Source: an uncultured Micavibrio sp. (lineage in GTDB: Bacteria; Pseudomonadota; Alphaproteobacteria; Micavibrionales; Micavibrionaceae). From it: a stretch of 64,000 nt of DNA. The notes under the pieces were generated by a model, which worked only from the letters and a program-made list of their open reading frames with translations, ran no database searches and was not told the origin of the DNA. Below are positions 21,321 to 60,457 of this stretch, piece by piece. The stretch spans positions 1,054,027-1,118,026 of the forward strand of contig CAYNRY010000001.1 of the NCBI GenBank assembly GCA_964399985.1, written 5' to 3'. A program made the position numbers and the translations under genes. The stretch's first letter is position 1. Every line of letters starts with the position of its first letter.

Positions 21321-22079
21321 CTATCTCCGCTTGAAACCCAGAACATATAAAATGGTACAGTTCTGTCCTGCGGCATTCGCGTACTCTGCCGATCCCGCAA
21401 CCGCAGCCGCCGGGCTGACATTGGGGGCCGTGCATGGTAATGCTCCGCCACCTGAAGCCGCGATTAAACGTCCAGATGTCGGATTTCCGTCATCTATTTT
21501 CTGATCGAGCTTTCTTGTTTCAATACCACTCAATAAAGGTCCTGTTGGATAGCGACCCTGTGGCTTGCCATATACAAAACTATGGCCGCTTTGGCCGTAC
21601 CAGGTGGTCGGATTTGGCGCAGCCCCGATCCAGCCAAGGGAAAAGCTTCCTTGACCCATATCGAAGCCAGGCCCTGTCTGCCCGCCGACCCAAAGGCCGT
21701 TATCATCAAGTTTCCCCGTATATCCTCCTGATATCAGATCGGCTTTGGAAAGATGCTGAAACACGATTCCTTCTTCGATAAGGACAGGATCATTAAAGCT
21801 TTCATCATCGATAAAACCATCACCATTGCCGTCATCGGCTCCGGGCCAGACGGTGGAAGCATTTGGCATATCTCCCGGGTTCCGCTTATACATGTCATAA
21901 AAAGTCTCTACTGCCGCTTCAGAGTTTGTGAAGGCCGTTGCCACCTTGGAAATCACGGCATTATTATAAAGCTCTTGCCCTTTTAGAACCCCTCCGATCA
22001 ATAATCCGATAATGATCATGACTATCGATAGCTCGACGAGCGTAAAACCCAACTCTTTAGAATGTGATCGGAGAAACAA
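21321..22079 (-). CDS. Type IV pilin-like protein (prepilin-type N-terminal cleavage/methylation domain)
   Basis: 252 aa, TTG start with GGAAGG 7 nt upstream. Leader MFLRSHSKELG then FTLVELSIVMIIIGLLIGGVLKG (Gly-1, Phe+1, Glu+5). C-terminal Cys-X24-Cys loop. Confidence 0.85.
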   Translation of the reverse strand: MFLRSHSKELGFTLVELSIVMIIIGLLIGGVLKGQELYNNAVISKVATAFTNSEAAVETFYDMYKRNPGDMPNASTVWPGADDGNGDGFIDDESFNDPVLIEEGIVFQHLSKADLISGGYTGKLDDNGLWVGGQTGPGFDMGQGSFSLGWIGAAPNPTTWYGQSGHSFVYGKPQGRYPTGPLLSGIETRKLDQKIDDGNPTSGRLIAASGGGALPCTAPNVSPAAAVAGSAEYANAAGQNCTILYVLGFKRR

Positions 22080-33601: not shown

Positions 33602-34324
33602 TTAACGTTCTGATAAAATCTGTACAAATATATAGTAAGTACCTGTCGTATTTTGTCGACAATACGCCCCGACAGATGGAACGTCAGGATTGGCGTATTC
33701 TTCTATATATGTTGAAGCCAATGTGCCGTCATAAGCAATAAGGGAGCCGCTTACTACAGGCACTGGCGGCTCTCCTCCCGGGTTTGTCACCTTGAGGATG
33801 TCATTAATAGCCAGACATGTTTCTCTCGTTAAAAACGGCTGGTTATAAAATAAGTCGTTGGCTGATTCAGTGCCTGATGCAGCATCAGTGCCAATACCCT
33901 TTATTTGCCCGACCTGAATCCTTACATGTCCTGATTTTATGCTGGTCAATGTTGGTGCTAAACTATTTGCAATGGGAATAGTTGGCACTACAGCCCCACC
34001 TTTTGCATCGAAAATATGACATATCATTGTCGCCGGGGCATTGGAATTGGCGGCATTTAAATCAGCGTTACTCGTTGTTTGAAAAATTGCACTGGTAAAA
34101 TCAAGCGTATAATCAGTGCACCCATTGGAGATCTTGACGCGCATTACTGCATTTCTTACAGCCGCACCGAATTGGATTATTTGTGCCGCATTGGCGCGCA
34201 CTTTATCCTTAGAAATTGAAGTGCTTCCATTCCGTGTGAATGAAGTTACCGCATAAGAAAGAGCCGCAAAGAGCGCAACGGCAATTAGAATTAGAAAAAG
34301 AACATTTCCAGATTGTCGTCGCAT
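33602..34324 (-). CDS. Hypothetical protein with a pilin-like hydrophobic N-terminus (non-canonical)
   Basis: 240 aa. MRRQSG then NVLFLILIAVALFAALSYAV resembles a class III signal but lacks Phe+1 and Glu+5. Four Cys residues. Lower G+C than pgk. Its stop abuts the pgk stop. Confidence 0.55.
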   Translation of the reverse strand: MRRQSGNVLFLILIAVALFAALSYAVTSFTRNGSTSISKDKVRANAAQIIQFGAAVRNAVMRVKISNGCTDYTLDFTSAIFQTTSNADLNAANSNAPATMICHIFDAKGGAVVPTIPIANSLAPTLTSIKSGHVRIQVGQIKGIGTDAASGTESANDLFYNQPFLTRETCLAINDILKVTNPGGEPPVPVVSGSLIAYDGTLASTYIEEYANPDVPSVGAYCRQNTTGTYYIFVQILSER

Positions 34325-50752: not shown

Positions 50753-51589
50753 TTATTGCTGAACGCGGATGTAAACACCACATGAAGTTGCTGTGACCGC
50801 TGTAGCATAGGTCGCAGCATCAGTGTTAGCTGAAACACAGCCAATTGGCGGAGTACCTGTAGAAACGGAACCCATAGCAATAACGGAACCAACGTTTGGC
50901 GCACCATCATCAAGTTTCGCATCGATACGGGAGGCTTGACCCGGGGTCAAGCTACCTGTACCCGCAGCAGCACCAGTAGTTGCAGTAGCAATAGTAGAAG
51001 TAGCACCTGCCGCAGCAATACCGTTATGGATCAACAAATAGTGACCGCCTCTTGGAACTGTACCCGTGCCTGGTGTGGCCGTTGGCCTTACAACACCGTT
51101 TTGATAGCCGATAAAGATTTGCCCGGGGACTTCCGCGGAAGGAACGGTTGCTCCGGATTCAACAGGCGAACCAGACGCAGGGTTACGAATTCCACCCAGA
51201 AGGTCCGTAGCGGCAAGTTGTGTCCAGGCTGCAATATTTTCGGATGTATTAGCCTGAGCAGCACCCGCACTATTCAATGGACCAATTTGGTTGTTACCTA
51301 GAGCGGCGGCAGTGACAGCTGCACACATTGTTCCAGCAAGGCAATTTGGCAAACGCGTTTGTGGCGATGTAATATCACCCGGCAATGCCGCGTAAGAATC
51401 GCGGAACGTGTTCATCGCCGCGTCGATCGCTTTGATTTTAGAAACTGTCGAAGCCAGACGCGCGTTGGCGATCAGTTCCTGGCCCTTCAAAATACCGCCG
51501 ATCAAAAGACCGATAATAATCATAACAATGGAAAGTTCGACAAGCGTAAAACCCTTTTCACCCTGTCTCGAGTTTGTAGTTGCAGTCAT
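50753..51589 (-). CDS. Type IV prepilin (278 aa), candidate major subunit of the adjacent pilus locus
   Basis: Start set at ATG 51589 (AGGAGG 7 nt upstream). Leader MTATTNSRQGEKG then FTLVELSIVMIIIGLLIGGILKGQ. Ala/Thr/Gly-rich globular part. C-terminal Cys-X18-Cys loop. Confidence 0.85.
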   Translation of the reverse strand: MTATTNSRQGEKGFTLVELSIVMIIIGLLIGGILKGQELIANARLASTVSKIKAIDAAMNTFRDSYAALPGDITSPQTRLPNCLAGTMCAAVTAAALGNNQIGPLNSAGAAQANTSENIAAWTQLAATDLLGGIRNPASGSPVESGATVPSAEVPGQIFIGYQNGVVRPTATPGTGTVPRGGHYLLIHNGIAAAGATSTIATATTGAAAGTGSLTPGQASRIDAKLDDGAPNVGSVIAMGSVSTGTPPIGCVSANTDAATYATAVTATSCGVYIRVQQ

Positions 51590-51731
51590 TCTAGTTCCTC
51601 CTAAAAATTTTCCCCGAAATGGGTAGCTCACAGTATACATGGAAATCGGGATAAATCTATCCCGGGCAATCTATATTCTCATGAAAAACTTAACAAAGTC
51701 CTAGCTTCATAAAAATTTCATAAAATGTGAT

Positions 51732-52467: not shown

Positions 52468-53235
52468 CTAGAATTGCCGTTTTCTTAAATCCACGAGTGT
52501 TGCAACCAGTATTAAAACAACGAATAAGGCTGTTTGTACCAGAATGAAAACATAATCCTTCATTCCATCGACGCCATATAAAAGCCAGGATGTTTGAGTC
52601 ATCAGATCCAGTCTTGGAAATAAAGTCGAAACCGCCTGAAAAATATATGTCATGAGCTGATAGCCGATAAAACTTTCCGAAGGGGTTTTCGCAACGAACA
52701 ATAACTGCCCCATCAGGCGCCCGAGAATATAAAAGCCGAGCGTCGCAAGTGACGCGGCGACAGGGCTCGACAAAACCATCGAGAAAAATAAGGCGACATT
52801 TACAATTAGTAAATATTCGCAAATAACACCCGTCGACCAGTAGATAACACCTTCGGCATTGCCTATTTTATTGGCGACAAACCCGAGCCCCAGACAAAGC
52901 GCAGCGGACACAATAAATGCAAGAATGGAAAATCCGGCAGCATGAGACAGGACAAAACTATTGCGACTGACGGGCCGCGTTAATAAATATTCGACATCGC
53001 GAGAGTCAAAAGATCTTCGAATGAAGAACACGACGAATAGAACCAATCCTGTCAAACCGAGAAGACGCAGGCTGCCCGCCAGATAAACGACAGAGAACAA
53101 TTCTTTTTCAACAACCGCCGAGGACGACAGGAAAAGAGAAATAAAGCCCCCCAGAACCATGATACCTACCAAGGACAGGAATAGCTTATCTCTGCGCGCT
53201 GCGGTCAGGACATATTTAACAAGTGTCGAATTCAT
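52468..53235 (-). CDS. ABC-2 type transporter permease-like protein (6 TM)
   Basis: 255 aa, six predicted TM helices, with the first TM followed by a long loop as in ABC-2 permeases. No NBD is fused; the candidate partner ATPase is at 59711-60457. Confidence 0.65.
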   Translation of the reverse strand: MNSTLVKYVLTAARRDKLFLSLVGIMVLGGFISLFLSSSAVVEKELFSVVYLAGSLRLLGLTGLVLFVVFFIRRSFDSRDVEYLLTRPVSRNSFVLSHAAGFSILAFIVSAALCLGLGFVANKIGNAEGVIYWSTGVICEYLLIVNVALFFSMVLSSPVAASLATLGFYILGRLMGQLLFVAKTPSESFIGYQLMTYIFQAVSTLFPRLDLMTQTSWLLYGVDGMKDYVFILVQTALFVVLILVATLVDLRKRQF

Positions 53236-53240
53236 TTCTA

Positions 53241-55241
53241 TTAAAGCTTAAATGGTCTGCGATCTTGGGAATAAACCCTGTACAGTTCTTTATCCGTATT
53301 ATGAATTGAATCCTGACCGCTTTGAAGGATTGTTGCCTTGATCAAGATGATAACTTCGTTTTTTGTAACCTGATCATCTTGTCCACGGAAGGCCGCACCC
53401 AAAACAGGAACTTCTCCCAAAATAGGAACAGCACGTTGTCCTGATTCCGTTCTGTCTTCCAAAAGACCGCCCATAACAAGCGTTTCACCAGAACGCATGT
53501 TCAGCATGGTATCAACTTCTTTGGTGCTTACGATAGGGATGGATGAGGCAATACCTGAATCTCCCATTCCAACAGAGGCAAGAATTACCTGAACTGCCGG
53601 ATCGTCAACAAATCCTGTAATCCGCGAAATAGTCGGACGAACCTGCATCGACACCATGTTTCTTTCCAGATCGATCGACGGCATGACATTGATCAACACA
53701 CCTTCAGGGACGTTTTTGATTTCAGAGTCAATTGTGAGGTCGGTATTCCCTGTTTCTTCGTCTTCTTCTCTGGTTGCGTCAAGCTCGAAATAAACCTGAT
53801 TTTCAGCCACGTTTAGAATTGCCGATTGGTTATTCAATACTGTCAGGCGCGGGCTGGCAAGCGCATGCACGGTGCCGAAACGCTGGATAGCCGAAACGAG
53901 GTTTTCAAGGCCGTTACTGCCATTTTGAATGACAAACGTGGCCGGCTCGCCAGGCGTGAGAGCGCCTCTTGCAATATTTAAAGAAGCACCAAACGTATCG
54001 CTATCGTTTAAGATGGACCAGTCAATACCATAGGTAAATTCATCACTTAGCTCGACTTCAAGAACTTTGGCTTCGATGAGAACCTGAGATGTTACCGACT
54101 TGCGCATCAGATCCAGATAAGTCGATATCTGGTCGTGCGCACGTTGCGTAGCATAAATAGAAATAAGACCCGCCTGCTTGTTAAGCGAATAGCTTGGTTG
54201 ATAAGTCGTGCCGCCTTCTTCCGAAGAGCTGACAGACGGCAAGGAATTGACATTCAATTGAACTTGTTGCGGGACAGCCGTGGTCGGAGCCGCAGTCTGG
54301 TTAGCCGATTGATCGTCCGGCGGGGACGTCGTCGGTGGAACCGAAGACCCTGTCGGATTATTCGCCGCAGATGTAGGGTCAGACGTATTCAAAGGAACCG
54401 CAGGGACGCTCTGACCCGCGCTGTAGTTAGAAACCAGCGAGCTTCTTTCTTCTCCAGCCTGTGGCGCCTCTTCATTCAAACTACCTTCATCCAAAGGAGG
54501 CACTGGAGGCGGAGCCGAAGACATCATGTTCAATTCAGGATCGGAAGACGTTATCTGATAATTCAACTGAGAATTTGAAGTCAAAATTTGTTGAATATTC
54601 GTGTTTAACTCACCCCAGAAATCTGATTTAGCTTCTCCGCTAATTGAATAGGATGAGCCGGTTGTCGCGCCGCCCCCCTCGCCCCCAGCAACCTCGGTAG
54701 ACGTCGTGACCGAGCTTGAGCTTTCTCTGGTCATCGCCAGATATTCAACTTTATAGTTTTTTGTATATGGCGTATCGAGCTCGATCTTTACCGTATCGTC
54801 CTCAAACTTGTAACGGAGCCCTGAAATTTCGCTTATCTGGCTCAAAACCATATCGAAGGGTTTATTTCTAGCCGTATAAATAATCGAACCTTTGATGCGC
54901 GGGTCCAATTGAATATCGTAATCCGCTTGCTTGGAGAGTTCAAAGAGAGCATCCCGAAGAGGAATGCTTTGATTGATGGCGATAGAAACCAGAGGCATCG
55001 GCTTCAAATTTGCAGAAGTATCGGCAACGTAAGGCTTTAAATCAGGAACGCCGTTGGCAGATGAATCTTCAAGAGGCACTTCCCTTGGCGCCAGCATATC
55101 TCGATAATCCTGAACTTCCTGATTGGTTGTTCGATCCGCTTTCAGCGTATTTTCTGTGAGCTGGCAAGCCGCCATACTTAGAATAACCGAGGCGCAGGCT
55201 GATGTGATCAGAACGGTACGGAAGGAAAATGCACTCTTCAT
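53241..55241 (-). CDS. pilQ: Secretin (PilQ/MshL/GspD family), probable lipoprotein, with a Ser/Thr/Pro-rich insert
   Basis: 666 aa. Signal plus lipobox-like LSMAAC. N0-like domain. Low-complexity region of about 150 aa. Secretin core ...IEAKVLEVELSDEFTYGIDWS... VPILGEVPVLGAAFRG...VIILIKATIL. Confidence 0.88.
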   Translation of the reverse strand: MKSAFSFRTVLITSACASVILSMAACQLTENTLKADRTTNQEVQDYRDMLAPREVPLEDSSANGVPDLKPYVADTSANLKPMPLVSIAINQSIPLRDALFELSKQADYDIQLDPRIKGSIIYTARNKPFDMVLSQISEISGLRYKFEDDTVKIELDTPYTKNYKVEYLAMTRESSSSVTTSTEVAGGEGGGATTGSSYSISGEAKSDFWGELNTNIQQILTSNSQLNYQITSSDPELNMMSSAPPPVPPLDEGSLNEEAPQAGEERSSLVSNYSAGQSVPAVPLNTSDPTSAANNPTGSSVPPTTSPPDDQSANQTAAPTTAVPQQVQLNVNSLPSVSSSEEGGTTYQPSYSLNKQAGLISIYATQRAHDQISTYLDLMRKSVTSQVLIEAKVLEVELSDEFTYGIDWSILNDSDTFGASLNIARGALTPGEPATFVIQNGSNGLENLVSAIQRFGTVHALASPRLTVLNNQSAILNVAENQVYFELDATREEDEETGNTDLTIDSEIKNVPEGVLINVMPSIDLERNMVSMQVRPTISRITGFVDDPAVQVILASVGMGDSGIASSIPIVSTKEVDTMLNMRSGETLVMGGLLEDRTESGQRAVPILGEVPVLGAAFRGQDDQVTKNEVIILIKATILQSGQDSIHNTDKELYRVYSQDRRPFKL

Positions 55242-55354: not shown

Positions 55355-56482
55355 TTAGTCGGAGATTTTCATGCCCGCGATATCAAGCCTTGTTAACACA
55401 TCGACTTTAGCGCCCATTTTAACTTGCTTGATTTTGATCATGAGATCACCCGGCAAATCTGATTGGGACAAGGCAGTCTCTTCTGAAATCAATCCTTGTT
55501 CAAAAAGGACTAAAAGAGACTGATCGAAACTGCACATGCCGGCTGACTGATTAGCTTCGATTATATCCTTGATTTTACTGAATTTCCCGTCATGGATAAG
55601 TTCCCGCACATGGCCCTCATTCAAGAGTATTTCCAAGGCTATCGTCTGACCGGGAATGATCGTCGGGATTAGTCTCTGGGATATAATCGCCTTTAGGTTT
55701 GACGCGATGCTAAAACAAATCTGGTGGCGCTGCTCTTCGGGGAACAGATTAACAACTCGCTGAATTGCCTGATAAGAGTTGTTTGTATGAATGGTCGCAA
55801 GGCATAAATGTCCCGTTTCAGAAGCCGTTAAAGCCTGCTCCATAACCTCGCGATCGCGTATCTCACCCACCAGAATAACATCTGGCCTTTGCCTTAAAGC
55901 GTTCTTGAGAGCGATGGAATAATTTTCCGTATCAACACCGACTTCACGCTGGGAAATAATGCTTTTCTGATGTTCGTGGTGATATTCAATGGGGTCTTCA
56001 ATGGTGATGATATGGCCTTGGCTATTCCTATTCCGATAGTCGATCATGGAAGCAAGCGTTGTCGACTTGCCTGACCCGGTCATGCCGGTAACAAGTATCA
56101 AACCTCTTTTTTGCATGGCCAGTTGCTCGAAAAGGGGAGGAAGATTTAGCTCTACAAAGTCGGGTATCTTCGAGACAATTCGCCTGATAACCAAAGCAGG
56201 ATTTTGGCGCTGTTTCATAACATTGACACGGAAGCGTCCATAGGCGCCCATATCAAGCGCGGAATTAAGCTCCATATTGGTTTCAAACTCCCGTTTTTGG
56301 CGAAGAGTTAGAATGTTATTTAATATTTCATCGAGATCGGCAGATTGAAGAGCCTGGTCGCCCAACTTCTCCATCCTGTCTTCAATTCTCAATGCCGGAG
56401 GATGGCCGACCGTCAGATAAAGATCCGTCGCCCTTTTTTCGTTCATCATCGTCAAATAGCCAAAGACTAGCGGTGAACTCAA
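55355..56482 (-). CDS. pilU: PilT-family retraction ATPase, PilU-like
   Basis: 375 aa. Walker A GMTGSGKSTTLASMI, IITIEDPIEY, ILVGEIRDREVM, ETGHLCLATIHTNN. ATGA-type overlap with pilT. Confidence 0.85.
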   Translation of the reverse strand: MSSPLVFGYLTMMNEKRATDLYLTVGHPPALRIEDRMEKLGDQALQSADLDEILNNILTLRQKREFETNMELNSALDMGAYGRFRVNVMKQRQNPALVIRRIVSKIPDFVELNLPPLFEQLAMQKRGLILVTGMTGSGKSTTLASMIDYRNRNSQGHIITIEDPIEYHHEHQKSIISQREVGVDTENYSIALKNALRQRPDVILVGEIRDREVMEQALTASETGHLCLATIHTNNSYQAIQRVVNLFPEEQRHQICFSIASNLKAIISQRLIPTIIPGQTIALEILLNEGHVRELIHDGKFSKIKDIIEANQSAGMCSFDQSLLVLFEQGLISEETALSQSDLPGDLMIKIKQVKMGAKVDVLTRLDIAGMKISD

Positions 56483-57627
56483 AACGAATACCCCTCTTCT
56501 TCAGCCGCGGCAACAGGAGCCGCCGGTTGACCTGGTTTGACTTGTCCGCCGCCTAAAGTCGCACTGGCTCTATTCGTCGCCGTGCTCTCATCTTCATCTG
56601 TTGTTTTCAAGAGCGCAAGACGCGCAGATTCTGGATCGACCAGCCCTTGCTCTAACAAGTTCTTAACAGCATCTTCCATTGTGATCATGCCGTAGCGAGA
56701 TCCTGTTTGCAGCATAGAATAAAGCTGCGGGATTTGGTTTTCACGGATCAGGTTTCTTACTGCGCCTGTCCCGACTAGAATTTCAAAAGCGCCTACTCTG
56801 CCCGTGCCGCCCGGCTTCTTCAAAAGTATCTGGGCGATAACTCCCTGTAGAGAACTGGAAAGCATCGCACGGATCATTTCTTTTTCCGCAGCCGGAAATA
56901 CATCGATGATACGATCGATTGTTTTAGCAGCAGTATTGGCGTGCAACGTGCCAAGAACCAAGTGTCCCGTTTCCGCAGCCGTCAAGGCAAGCGCAATAGT
57001 TTCATGGTCGCGCATCTCTCCAACCAGAATAACGTCAGGATCTTCCCGCAAGGCGCTTTTCAGAGCTCTTGCAAAAGATTTAGTATCAGCACCAAGCTCA
57101 CGGTGATTGATGAGGGATTTTTTCGATGTGTGGAAAAATTCAACCGGATCCTCGATGGTCAGAATATGCTTGGCCGTATGTTCATTGATATGATTGATGA
57201 TAGCCGCAAGCGTTGTTGATTTACCTGAACCCGTGGCTCCGGTCACAAGAATAAGCCCCTTTTCCAATTCGGCAAAACGGCGAATAACTGCCGGTAATTC
57301 CAGCTCTTGCATTGTCGGAATAACAGAAGGAATGGTCCGCAAAACTGCGGCAGTACCATTACGGTTCATAAATGCATTGACGCGGAAACGTGCCTTCTCA
57401 CCGAAAGCTACGGCAAAATCCATTTCAAAATTCTTTTCATACTCACCGCGCTGCTCATCCGTCATAATGGAATAAAGCATGGCGCGAATATTATCAGATG
57501 TCAGAACATCCGCTTTCAAACGCTTCAGAGTTCCGTGCACGCGTATTATAGGGGGATTACCCGAACTAAGATGCAAATCGGACGCGTTGTTTTGCATAAC
57601 GAACGCAAGTAATTGGGTTATATCCAT
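56479..57627 (-). CDS. pilT: Twitching motility ATPase PilT with a C-terminal extension
   Basis: 382 aa. MDITQLLAFVMQNNASDLHLSSGNPP, GATGSGKSTTLAAII, ILTIEDPVEF, ILVGEMRD, ETGHLVLGTLHANT. A tail of about 40 extra residues ends EEEGYSF. Confidence 0.92.
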   Translation of the reverse strand: MDITQLLAFVMQNNASDLHLSSGNPPIIRVHGTLKRLKADVLTSDNIRAMLYSIMTDEQRGEYEKNFEMDFAVAFGEKARFRVNAFMNRNGTAAVLRTIPSVIPTMQELELPAVIRRFAELEKGLILVTGATGSGKSTTLAAIINHINEHTAKHILTIEDPVEFFHTSKKSLINHRELGADTKSFARALKSALREDPDVILVGEMRDHETIALALTAAETGHLVLGTLHANTAAKTIDRIIDVFPAAEKEMIRAMLSSSLQGVIAQILLKKPGGTGRVGAFEILVGTGAVRNLIRENQIPQLYSMLQTGSRYGMITMEDAVKNLLEQGLVDPESARLALLKTTDEDESTATNRASATLGGGQVKPGQPAAPVAAAEEEGYSF

Positions 57628-57691
57628 GGCCTTCTCCCTGTTAGCCTAACTTTAAACTTATAAAAACAAAGATATAGTAAACAAATCTAAT

Positions 57692-58168
57692 TTAATTAAA
57701 ACCAAGCTGTAATCCGAATGCCAACAGCCCTATCACGCCGACTATTATTACAAGTCTGAACGAAAACCGTCTCTGGAATACCCCTAGGTAAATAATTGAT
57801 ACCAAAAAGGGCAGACAAAAGAGAAATGTCACGGATACTATGCTGATACCAGACCACAGAAAAACCATGATAGCGCAAAAAGCACATATTAATTCAATTA
57901 AAGGATAGAAAGCCGGTATGGCCCCTGTACAATGCCTGCATCTGCCCTTTGTCGAAAGCCACGAAATAACCGGAACGAGATCACGAAGACCTAATGTCGT
58001 TCCACAAGACGGGCACGCAGATCTTGAGGATGGCCCGCCTAATTTAAACCATGGAAGATTGCTTTTTTCGCGATAAATAATTGCAGATGCAAAACTGCCT
58101 GCGCAGAGTCCGGACAAGCCATAAACAATAATGAATATGATTTGAAAAATAAGGGTGTCGTCATTCAC
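57692..58168 (-). CDS. Prepilin peptidase homologue retaining only the N-terminal Cys-rich (DiS_P_DiS-like) domain; no A24 aspartyl protease domain
   Basis: 158 aa. GSFASAII...CPSCGTTLGLRDLVPVISWLSTKGRCRHCTGAIPAFYPLIEL is the PilD N-domain signature. The remaining 85 residues are 3 TM helices with no Asp at all. Confidence 0.7.
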   Translation of the reverse strand: MNDDTLIFQIIFIIVYGLSGLCAGSFASAIIYREKSNLPWFKLGGPSSRSACPSCGTTLGLRDLVPVISWLSTKGRCRHCTGAIPAFYPLIELICAFCAIMVFLWSGISIVSVTFLFCLPFLVSIIYLGVFQRRFSFRLVIIVGVIGLLAFGLQLGFN

Positions 58169-58170
58169 GA

Positions 58171-59634
58171 CTAATTCCCCCGAAGCGCAGCCAACCTGTC
58201 ATAAACCTGTTCACGCGAAAATCCACCAGATGAAGGCTCTCCATTTACCGAATAAACATCAAGCGCCTGCTCATAGAACTTTATCGCATTTGCTCTATCT
58301 TTAAGACGGTCGTAAATAACGGCCATGTTAAAATAATGAAGAGGATTTTCCGGCTGAAGCGTAACCGCCGCGTTCAAATGCTTTAATCCATCCTGAGGAT
58401 TGCCGGATTCGGCAAAGGCAAGTCCAAGTTGAGCTGCCACGGCAGCGCTCCGTGGATATCTTTCCTTCAGATCAAGCAAATTCTGCAATGCAACCGCTGG
58501 CTGCGTTTTACCGACGAGTCCCATCAGATTGGTGAGCGCCTCCGGATTATCAGGTTCGATATCAAGTATATGCCTGTAACCTTCGATCGCCTTTTGTGTT
58601 TCTCCGAGCTTCTGCAATGTAACGGAACGTCCCATCAAGATACGCAAATCATTGGGGTTCTTTTTATAAACTTCATTATAAAAAGCCAGAGCCGCCTCGT
58701 TATTGCCGAGACTCGCTGCCCTGCTTGCATTCACAAGTCGAGATTCGATTATCTCATTATCCTTCCCTCTCTCGACAATCATTTCATTACCATCGGCATT
58801 ACCTTTATGGACGATGATAATGCTTTGTCCCGGCTCCAATTCTGGATTGATGCTCGGCGGCGGAATATCTCTTAAAGCTTTCCCTTTAGGGGCGTCAAAA
58901 TAAACAGTCGCGGGGACGTTATCTTTTTTCTCAACCTTCTTGGGAAGGTTTATCGTTTCTCTTGCCGCCTCAAGTTCATTTTTTGGTTTTGGTTCAGGCT
59001 TCGTGGATGTTACCGGAGCGAGATTATCTTGCGCAGGGGGTGTCTGGGATTCTTCTGCCTCGGTAATCTTTATTTCTTCTGTCGGAGCGGGCTCTGACTT
59101 CGCTTCTTCAGCTTTTATCGCAGCGACAGCATCCTCTTTCTCCGAGATCGTCGGCGCTGTGTTTTCAGAAATCGGCATTACCGGAGAAGCAGAAATATTT
59201 TCACGGATAGCGGGAACATCCTGCCCTGCAATTTCACTTAAAGGAGCATCTTGATTTAAAACCATAGCTTCAGAATCACCGGAAACCGCAGGTTGCTCAA
59301 AATCACTGGCAGGCGTGGGTATAACTCCTTGGGCATTCTCAATGGGCGCGCTTTCAGAAACAGGCGTCGGTGCAACCGCGGAAACCGTAGGCTGAGGTAA
59401 AATTGCATTTTCTTTATTGTAAAAGTAAAAGGAAGCCCCTGCCAGAAGGGATAGTATAATTATTCCGCCCCCTAAAATTCCCGAAGTTTTTTTCCGCTTC
59501 TCGGGATGCGTAAAAATATTGTCATCATCATCATCATCGAAATCATTTTCATCTGCCAAATCGCTTGCTGACAGATCGTCTGCTGTATCCAGCTGGTCAT
59601 CGTCTAGGTGAAGGTCTTTATCGGAATCGATCAT
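58171..59634 (-). CDS. Bitopic TPR-repeat protein with a poly-acidic N-terminal tail
   Basis: 487 aa. Asp-rich N-terminus (…NDFDDDDDDN…), one TM helix (GILGGGIIILSLLAGASFYFY), Pro/Ala/Glu-rich linker, about 5 C-terminal TPRs. Confidence 0.8.
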   Translation of the reverse strand: MIDSDKDLHLDDDQLDTADDLSASDLADENDFDDDDDDNIFTHPEKRKKTSGILGGGIIILSLLAGASFYFYNKENAILPQPTVSAVAPTPVSESAPIENAQGVIPTPASDFEQPAVSGDSEAMVLNQDAPLSEIAGQDVPAIRENISASPVMPISENTAPTISEKEDAVAAIKAEEAKSEPAPTEEIKITEAEESQTPPAQDNLAPVTSTKPEPKPKNELEAARETINLPKKVEKKDNVPATVYFDAPKGKALRDIPPPSINPELEPGQSIIIVHKGNADGNEMIVERGKDNEIIESRLVNASRAASLGNNEAALAFYNEVYKKNPNDLRILMGRSVTLQKLGETQKAIEGYRHILDIEPDNPEALTNLMGLVGKTQPAVALQNLLDLKERYPRSAAVAAQLGLAFAESGNPQDGLKHLNAAVTLQPENPLHYFNMAVIYDRLKDRANAIKFYEQALDVYSVNGEPSSGGFSREQVYDRLAALRGN

Positions 59635-59710: not shown

Positions 59711-60457
59711 TCATGCAGCCCCCCGGACAGCGTCATTGGCATTATTGACAATATGCAGAAATGCTCGTTCAAGGCTATTTTCATTCATTTGAGTTTTAAA
59801 GCCCGACGGGGTTCCACTGTAATGAATCACTCCATCATGAATAACCGAAATATTATCACAAATCTCATCCATATCAGCCAGAATATGGCTCGATAGAATA
59901 ACAGTCCGCCCCTCGCCTTTTACTTTCAATAAAAGATTTTTAACTAAGGCTCTTGCTAAGGGATCCAGACCGCTCATCGGCTCGTCCAGAATAAGAACGG
60001 AACAACCGGTGAGAATGGTGGCAATAAGCCCTAATTTTTGACGCATGCCCTTGGAATATGTTTGAACTTTGCGGGATAAAACAGACGGATCAAGCGCCAA
60101 GCCTGAAGCATATTCTTCCATCAAAGTTTTTTCGACTTTACGGTTATATAATTCGGCAGAAAACTTTATAAATTCGCCTCCCGTCAAAAACCATGGCGGA
60201 TCGAATCTTTCCGGTAGATAGGATATTTGCGACTTAACCGATTTATTATTTCTATCCGCATCCAGAATGCTTATATTTCCAGAAATTTCACCTTTAAGAC
60301 CGAGTAATATCTTGATCAATGTCGTTTTACCCGCGCCATTCAAACCGATAAGCCCGTAAGTTTCGGCTTTTTGAATCCCCATACTGACGCCATGAAGGAC
60401 CTGCCGCTTATCATATGCAGCCTTAAGGTTTTCAACATTTACAACGATATTACTCAT
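59711..60457 (-). CDS. ABC transporter ATP-binding protein (ABC-2 subfamily type)
   Basis: 248 aa. Walker A GLNGAGKTT, signature YSKGMRQKLGL, Walker B VLILDEP, H-loop SSH. Confidence 0.9.
   Translation of the reverse strand: MSNIVVNVENLKAAYDKRQVLHGVSMGIQKAETYGLIGLNGAGKTTLIKILLGLKGEISGNISILDADRNNKSVKSQISYLPERFDPPWFLTGGEFIKFSAELYNRKVEKTLMEEYASGLALDPSVLSRKVQTYSKGMRQKLGLIATILTGCSVLILDEPMSGLDPLARALVKNLLLKVKGEGRTVILSSHILADMDEICDNISVIHDGVIHYSGTPSGFKTQMNENSLERAFLHIVNNANDAVRGAA

Follow-up and report, generated by a model that had tools for sequence, protein, structure and literature searches.

Prepilin peptidases are textbook bifunctional enzymes. What, then, does a pilus cluster gain from a homologue that retains the N-terminal part of such an enzyme and lacks its protease? 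We address this question for pilD-N, a gene in a stretch of 64,000 nucleotides from an uncultured Micavibrio sp. (hereafter the window, from whose first letter positions are counted), the closest named records to the locus being Micavibrio metagenome-assembled genomes. Where reviews of type IV filaments deal with this domain or with methylation, the peptidases they present are either bimodular or, like TadV, limited to the peptidase, and a form made of the methylase domain only is not described there (PMC10191384, PMC4471445). In the Micavibrio genome paper, pil genes and prepilin-type proteins do come up, and its passages on pili, pilins and peptidases do not mention the pilD-N gene (PMC3189940). 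To what could be read from the letters of the window, the present analysis adds that the loss recurs across the family, that the gene was shortened where it stands, and that the loss goes with the presence of one particular stand-alone peptidase.

The pilD-N Gene and Its Pilus Cluster

The frame of pilD-N (table 1) opens with GTG, preceded by GGGGGA, and encodes 158 aa; the stop codon of the upstream TPR gene lies only 2 nt before this start. A preliminary description, made from the letters of the window, had taken the product for a prepilin peptidase homologue without a peptidase domain, and the Pfam search agrees. The protein matches PF06750 (A24_N_bact) with E=1.2e-22 and 80.2 bits, the cut-off being 23 bits, over residues 19–104 and profile positions 2–82 of 84; PF01478 (Peptidase_A24) is absent from it even at E<=0.1, and an NCBIfam search of the protein returned nothing relevant. 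Genome-wide, the profile search places PF06750 at pilD-N only. The PilD N-terminal signature recognized in that description (the Cys pairs and the GSF, P..S and YP..E positions) coincides with the invariant columns of the family alignments, namely the CxxC pairs, G24-S25-F26, P66..S69 and Y88-P89..E92, all of which are present in PilD-N. Residues C52, C55, C77 and C80 make up the CxxC-Xn-CxxC zinc motif that follows TM1, a predicted metal site. The AlphaFold2 model, built on 32 homologues (mean pLDDT 89.7, pTM 0.81), has a long TM1 (2–35), then helices 87–106, 110–131 and 137–157, and a small zinc-ribbon-like domain between. A sequence search of the PDB and a Foldseek comparison of the model with the PDB gave no meaningful match (best E=0.77, to small multidrug transporters), and no SAM-binding fold was recognizable in these searches; with no match in the PDB, the model permits no structural inference on a SAM site.

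Synteny places pilD-N within a type IVa pilus (T4aP) cluster that has canonical pilins and with which it is co-inherited. The order PilM/N-like, PilO-like, 208-aa protein, ABC ATPase, TPR, pilD, pilT, pilU, secretin is conserved in at least 30 relatives, and the pairing of TPR and pilD is conserved across the order. An ABC ATPase (59711–60457) and an ABC-2-like permease (52468–53235) are found inside the cluster of the window, the position of the ATPase being conserved across the order. In family f5, a near-overlapping pair of TPR and PilD(-N) genes persists in a different neighborhood (L029:4571–6019, L030:4619–6034, L031:3883–6012); there, pilT, pilU and the secretin gene are not adjacent to the pair, and a close PilT orthologue was not found in the genome.

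Table 1. Features of the pilD-N Locus, Its Neighbors, the Presumed Substrates and the Candidate Peptidase (window positions unless stated otherwise)
Feature	Position	Strand	Basis
pilD-N (PilD homologue: TM1, Cys4 zinc domain, three further TM helices; without peptidase domain)	57692..58168	-	ORF, PF06750
TM1, residues 2–35, with invariant G24-S25-F26 and R33	58064..58165	-	model helix H2–35, family alignments
Cytoplasmic zinc-ribbon-like "methylase" domain (IPR010627), residues 36–86	57911..58063	-	PF06750 match, conservation
First Cys pair, C52-P-S-C55	58004..58015	-	sequence; 100% conserved in 74 dead and 122 intact homologues
Second Cys pair, C77-R-H-C80, with G75 and R76 just before	57929..57940	-	sequence, conservation
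TM2, TM3, short cytoplasmic loop, TM4 (residues 87–158, protein end)	57695..57910	-	model helices, colinear with intact PilD
Remnant of the dead first catalytic loop, residues 127–138 (YLGVFQRRFSFR)	57755..57790	-	alignments with intact relatives
AT-rich spacer between pilD-N and pilT, 64 nt	57628..57691	.	ORF coordinates; without remnant of the peptidase half (tblastn)
TPR partner: acidic N-terminal tail, one TM segment, C-terminal TPR repeats	58171..59634	-	TPR families; upstream of pilD-N
pilT, retraction ATPase	56479..57627	-	PF00437, E=5.5e-51
pilU-like second retraction ATPase	55355..56482	-	PF00437, E=1.9e-48
Cluster secretin	53241..55241	-	PF00263 (E=1.2e-31), PF07655
Type IVa-like cluster pilin, ...EKG|FTLVELSIV, presumed substrate	50753..51640	-	sequence
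Unlinked paralogous pilin, ...KELG|FTLVELSIV	21321..22079	-	sequence
168-aa stand-alone A24 peptidase	C1:230440-230946 (outside the window)		PF01478, both catalytic motifs

Loss of the Protease Half

Alignment with intact relatives reveals that PilD-N is colinear with full-length PilD through TM4, covers the first two helices of the peptidase domain, and ends there. The three TM helices that the preliminary description had placed before the end of the protein are recovered in the AlphaFold2 model, with the refinement that PilD-N reaches two helices into the peptidase domain. Activity of PilD requires both catalytic Asp residues (bioRxiv 10.1101/2025.07.10.664072). The position of the first is occupied by Gly129, with F-S-F instead of L-P-D/N: intact ...PFLVS-LLVID-LxxxILP(D/N)-QLV... 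becomes ...PFLVS-IIYLG-VFQRRFSFR-LV... in PilD-N, a reading of the tail that rests on smaller gap-free alignments and on the congener G001, as the 222-sequence MAFFT alignment misplaces the C-terminal tails of short forms. The region of the second (GxGD) is absent, the end of the protein being reached before the motif. The only aspartates are D3, D4 and D63; the earlier remark that the last 85 residues hold none, from which the absence of both catalytic residues had been deduced, can be extended to the last 95.

The missing half is not hidden nearby. When the C-terminal halves of PilD from 22 relatives (20 intact proteins and two degenerate full-length forms) were compared by tblastn with positions 56400–58300, only noise was obtained (best E=0.03), and the initial observations that 64 nt separate the frame from the pilT start at 57627 and that the other frames carry no A24 remnant both stand. 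As there is no A24 sequence downstream, a frameshift restoring an A24 domain is impossible here. From the start of pilD to the start of pilT the distance is 541 nt in this genome versus ~950 nt in relatives with an intact PilD; given that intact PilD occupies the equivalent position in these relatives, the gene was shortened in place. The replacement of Asp by Gly at the first catalytic position is also seen in the full-length degenerate form of G001, and inactivation thus came before truncation. By alignment and gene order, pilD-N is the pilD that the type IVa pilus cluster had ancestrally; its protease function was lost as the first catalytic Asp became Gly and everything after TM4, with the GxGD motif, was deleted in place.

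Distribution in Relatives

An intact PilD of 251–291 aa, with both Asp residues, occupies the pilD position in 21 of 37 related genomes, and a peptidase-dead gene does so in the other 16. Dead forms of this genus measure 158–164 aa (G000, G002–G006). Elsewhere we find 159 aa in G011, 197–198 aa in G009 and G015, and a shortest class of 98–105 aa, consisting of TM1, zinc domain and TM2 only, in G022, G025 and all three f5 genomes; full-length degenerate forms with a PF06750 match only occur in G001 (259 aa) and G010 (260 aa). A lack of PF06750 in G023 was considered as a complete loss and rejected as a contig-end artefact. In an order-wide sample, open frames shorter than 225 aa are present in at least 29 of 190 PF06750-positive genomes. 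The wider family tells a similar story: an exhaustive HMMER search retrieved 12,135 homologues of PilD-N, and among the best 150 cluster representatives about one-third are short, with length peaks near 100 and 150–165 aa. Among the nearest homologues, a set selected by similarity to the PilD-N query and scored by alignment columns for the catalytic Asp residues, 122 of 222 have both and 74 have neither.

In a tree of cluster proteins, this genus, G009 and G010 form one clade, a grouping that calls for a single inactivation and, after it, at least three truncations, and G011, G015, G022, f2 and f5 fall elsewhere. Because deep nodes are weak and other families are nested in f1, the tree leaves the count of independent losses loose: it calls for one inactivation or more and several truncations, and the losses probably number four or more. 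The genomes nested within f1 belong to f3, f6, f7 and f8, and G022 joins f6 on long branches; lateral transfer of the cluster or long-branch attraction may account for this nesting. A further peculiarity is seen in the dead PilDs of two different genera (L017:5961–6740 of G001 and L026:5983–6591 of G015), where the second Cys pair reads C-A-C-G-K, that is, CxC and not CxxC.

Selection and Conservation of the N-domain

The short form is not peculiar to this assembly. In the same TPR-pilD-pilT-pilU-secretin position it occurs in five other species and on one metagenome contig, with lengths of 158–160 aa in G002, G003, G005, G006 and P0003; the last lies on an independent contig, whose 158-aa orthologue is 58% identical and part of an equivalent cluster. 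An alignment of orthologues, proposed at the outset as a check on the short form, finds it conserved in relatives of the genus. Protein identity among short forms is 49–65% despite saturated synonymous sites: in comparisons between species of the genus pS is 0.69–0.85 and pN 0.21–0.33, and in the two comparisons that are not saturated dN/dS is 0.13 (versus G005) and 0.21 (versus G006). Constraint extends to TM1, the zinc domain and TM2–4 individually, the segment TM2–TM4 having pN 0.20–0.35 and pS 0.62–0.85. Among cluster genes pilD-N nonetheless has the highest dN, 0.25 versus G005, compared with 0.016 for pilT, and the closest relative carries P53L and S54L within the first Cys motif. The genome itself (2.26 Mb) is 99.9% complete in 4 contigs. 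Recovery of the short form from independent assemblies, together with a constrained protein at saturated synonymous sites, excludes an assembly error or a recent pseudogenization, in keeping with the initial view that a simple frameshift was not involved: six further species-level genomes or contigs have it. PilD-N is a conserved, selected and peptidase-less derivative of PilD.

What selection has preserved is the N-domain. Eighteen positions (G24, S25, F26, R33, S50, C52, C55, L59, D63, P66, S69, W70, G75, C77, R78, C80, Y88, and E92) are 86–100% conserved, equally in the dead (n=74) and intact (n=122) sets, and the four Cys residues reach 99–100% in both. In Pseudomonas aeruginosa PilD, the Cys4 site binds zinc, and the zinc is required for SAM-dependent methylation and dispensable for cleavage (PMC3584216); methylation also depends in part on a Gly and a basic residue beside the third Cys (PMC3584216, citing Pepe & Lory 1998). 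Their counterparts in PilD-N are G75 and R76, so that G75-R76-C77 and the four Cys are all there. Purifying selection and the unchanged methylation-linked residues argue against one of the three roles initially envisaged (stand-alone methyltransferase, zinc-binding module, or degenerate scaffold), namely that of a degenerate protein, and for a retained N-domain function. Two cautions come from the literature. P. aeruginosa can assemble its pili without methylation (PMC3584216), and selection for a dedicated methylase is thus not self-evident. Moreover, reviews state in their passages on the domain that the N-domain alone has never been formally demonstrated to be the methyltransferase (PMC4471445), regarding its methylase role as undemonstrated and the purpose of methylation as unexplained (PMC10191384, PMC4471445).

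Stand-Alone Peptidases and Pilin Substrates

Which enzyme, then, cleaves the pilins? Both pilins of the window read ...G|FTLVELSIVMIIIGLL, with the canonical G/FTLVE site noted at the outset, and the genome has about 13 pilin genes with G|FTLVE or G|FTLLE, eleven of them, including the two in the window, with an identical GFTLVELSIVMIIIGLLIGG N-terminus. From these sites a functional peptidase encoded elsewhere had been anticipated, and two stand-alone PF01478 proteins with both catalytic motifs do exist in the genome, pilD-N not being among the matches; a full-length pilD was not found, no other PF06750 gene being detected genome-wide. One of the two is a 188-aa CpaA in a Tad locus, adjoining CpaB and CpaC. 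The other, of 168 aa, is encoded ~880 kb from pilD-N, next to and divergent from a second cluster that resembles those of pili or type II secretion systems. By tblastn the C-terminal halves of intact PilD match only the 168-aa enzyme in this genome; it is 30–38% identical to PilD protease domains (E about 1e-12), as against E values of about 1e-4 to 1e-6 for CpaA.

The second cluster (C1:230440–241237) comprises the A24 peptidase, a response regulator, a secretin (652 aa, the N-terminal half without a Pfam match), an ASH/DUF1573 Ig-like protein of 509 aa, a T2SSE ATPase, a T2SSF platform protein and several unannotatable genes; an overlap of 4 nt joins the peptidase gene to a gene for a CaiB-type CoA-transferase. 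As to the pilins, the eleven genes of ~240–270 aa are dispersed over C1, C2 and C3 of the genome and share the mature N-terminus FTLVELSIVMIIIGLLIGG(I/V)LKGQ, and three large pilin-like genes (432–698 aa) lie at C3:278–282 kb. A distinct pilin-like family of ~240–260 aa has 22 paralogues genome-wide (33602–34324 in the window; others, for example, at C1:239728–240438 and C1:730604–733671), with a noncanonical N-terminus, ...RG|N(V/I)LFLILIAVALFAALSYAV, that lacks both Phe+1 and Glu+5. Two copies of this family belong to the second pilus-like cluster beside the 168-aa A24 peptidase, and in the relative G025 two copies directly adjoin the gene of a 105-aa PilD-N.

The distribution of the 168-aa peptidase is informative. 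An orthologue is present in all 16 genomes with a dead PilD, and the 9 genomes without one all have an intact PilD, most of them with a CpaA-type enzyme; a naive one-sided Fisher test on these genome counts, which ignores shared ancestry, gives p ~0.002. The orthologues form an old clade of their own in the tree and stand beside an intact PilD in 12 genomes, on which grounds we rejected the idea that the 168-aa peptidase had arisen by gene fission from the C-terminal half of the local PilD. Occurrence in genomes with an intact PilD also implies that this peptidase has a job of its own, probably in the adjacent second system. Some A24 enzymes are substrate-specific, a point against taking cleavage of G|F pilins by this one for granted. 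Overall, the evidence suggests that loss of the protease half of PilD became possible where the 168-aa peptidase made it redundant.

Possible Roles of PilD-N

We suggest that PilD-N keeps the job of the N-domain, acting as a separate polypeptide: it would N-methylate the Phe that cleavage exposes at the N-terminus of pilins, in a reaction dependent on zinc and SAM, or would at the minimum bind and present that N-terminus. Leader cleavage of the ~13 prepilins with G|FTLVE or G|FTLLE would be carried out in trans by a stand-alone A24 peptidase, for which the 168-aa enzyme is the likeliest candidate, and the presence of this second peptidase would have let the protease half of PilD decay. Pilin N-methylation is, on the available alignments, the most probable function of PilD-N, with a probability that we put at roughly 0.55. 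The broader proposition is more tentative, and we rate it slightly below even odds: that the N-domain of PilD is autonomous, that cleavage and N-methylation are divided between two proteins in the predatory Micavibrionales, and that pilin N-methyltransferases occurring naturally on their own would be represented for the first time by the ~100- and 158-aa PilD-N forms, which might dock on a stand-alone A24 peptidase as a two-chain PilD.

A different role, unlikely in our judgment though deserving serious consideration, would be that of a non-catalytic pseudo-enzyme, a structural or regulatory membrane subunit without methyltransferase chemistry that serves as a docking or adaptor partner of the co-translated TPR protein or as a prepilin-binding "receptor" supplying the pilus machine with pilins. 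The coupling of the TPR gene to pilD-N is tight (the 2-nt gap) and is kept in f5 away from pilT, pilU and the secretin, and the full-length, catalytically dead forms of G001 and G010 are typical of pseudo-enzymes that have retained binding. The zinc site may be purely structural, as discussed in PMC3584216, and TM2–4 are conserved though useless for catalysis. However, a structural role alone would be expected to relax some of the conserved residues, whereas the dead forms keep exactly those of the bifunctional enzymes, among them the Gly and the basic residue linked specifically to methylation; and the ~100-aa class dispenses with TM3–4 entirely.

A further rival would be an obligate two-chain PilD, in which PilD-N docks on the 168-aa A24 peptidase so that two polypeptides together restore a bifunctional enzyme, a fission in function and not in origin. 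The topology is suggestive, as the ~100-aa class (TM1, zinc domain, and TM2) and the 168-aa peptidase, whose sequence starts with the helix just before the first catalytic Asp, partition that of PilD exactly, and every genome with a dead or mini form has the peptidase. Yet the 158-aa form overlaps the first two helices of the peptidase and does not complement them, the genes are ~880 kb apart, and the peptidase is an old separate lineage that stands beside intact PilD in 12 genomes and is not a piece of the local PilD; we regard an obligate complex as improbable. Least credible of all, and only barely conceivable, is the reading of the gene as a relic decaying toward loss, or of its short form as an error of assembly or sequencing. 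Its appeal lies in the dN of pilD-N, the highest in the cluster, in tails that leave proteins of 98 to 260 aa in different lineages, and in P53L and S54L in the first Cys motif of the closest relative. A relic would hardly stay open at identical length across synonymously saturated species with dN/dS of 0.13–0.21, nor retain its Cys residues at 100% in 74 dead forms, and an artefact is at odds with recovery of the short form from many independent assemblies and with a 99.9% complete genome in 4 contigs.

Significance and Comparison with Known Systems

PilD-N would represent a natural separation of the two activities of PilD. The isolated N-domain, available in two minimal sizes, is a ready test object for two questions, whether this domain suffices for methylation and whether methylation can be taken away with cleavage left intact. 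If the N-domain is indeed autonomous, it would let genetics address cleanly what pilin N-methylation is for, a puzzle 40 years old, in bacteria that have dozens of pilin genes and whose pili are thought to be used in predation. The case also documents that a fused enzyme, once accompanied by a redundant protease, has decayed repeatedly and always in the same direction.

The reference system is PilD/XcpA of P. aeruginosa (also GspO, OutO; MEROPS A24A), a bifunctional type IV prepilin leader peptidase and N-methyltransferase. PilD-N shares with it the first four TM helices and a homologous N-terminal module, in which TM1 is followed by the cytoplasmic CxxC...CxxC zinc domain with the Gly and the basic residue that precede the third Cys; both are encoded among type IVa pilus genes, together with pilins of the G|F kind. 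Unlike PilD/XcpA, it has Gly at the equivalent of D149, and the equivalent of D213 (GxGD) is deleted together with the last four or so helices, leaving 158 aa versus about 250–290 aa; its gene lies between a TPR gene and pilT, in place of the pilB-pilC-pilD operon of PilD/XcpA. Inactive rhomboids, the iRhoms and derlins, are polytopic homologues of intramembrane proteases that lost their catalytic residues and are maintained for a role other than proteolysis. The full-length dead forms of G001 and G010 resemble them, although fold and family are unrelated, and, unlike iRhoms and derlins, PilD-N retains a second, potentially catalytic domain, the methylase. That the modules of PilD can work apart is apparent from TadV, CpaA and FppA, stand-alone A24 peptidases without the methylase domain: these are proteases without an N-domain, and PilD-N is the converse, an N-domain without the protease.
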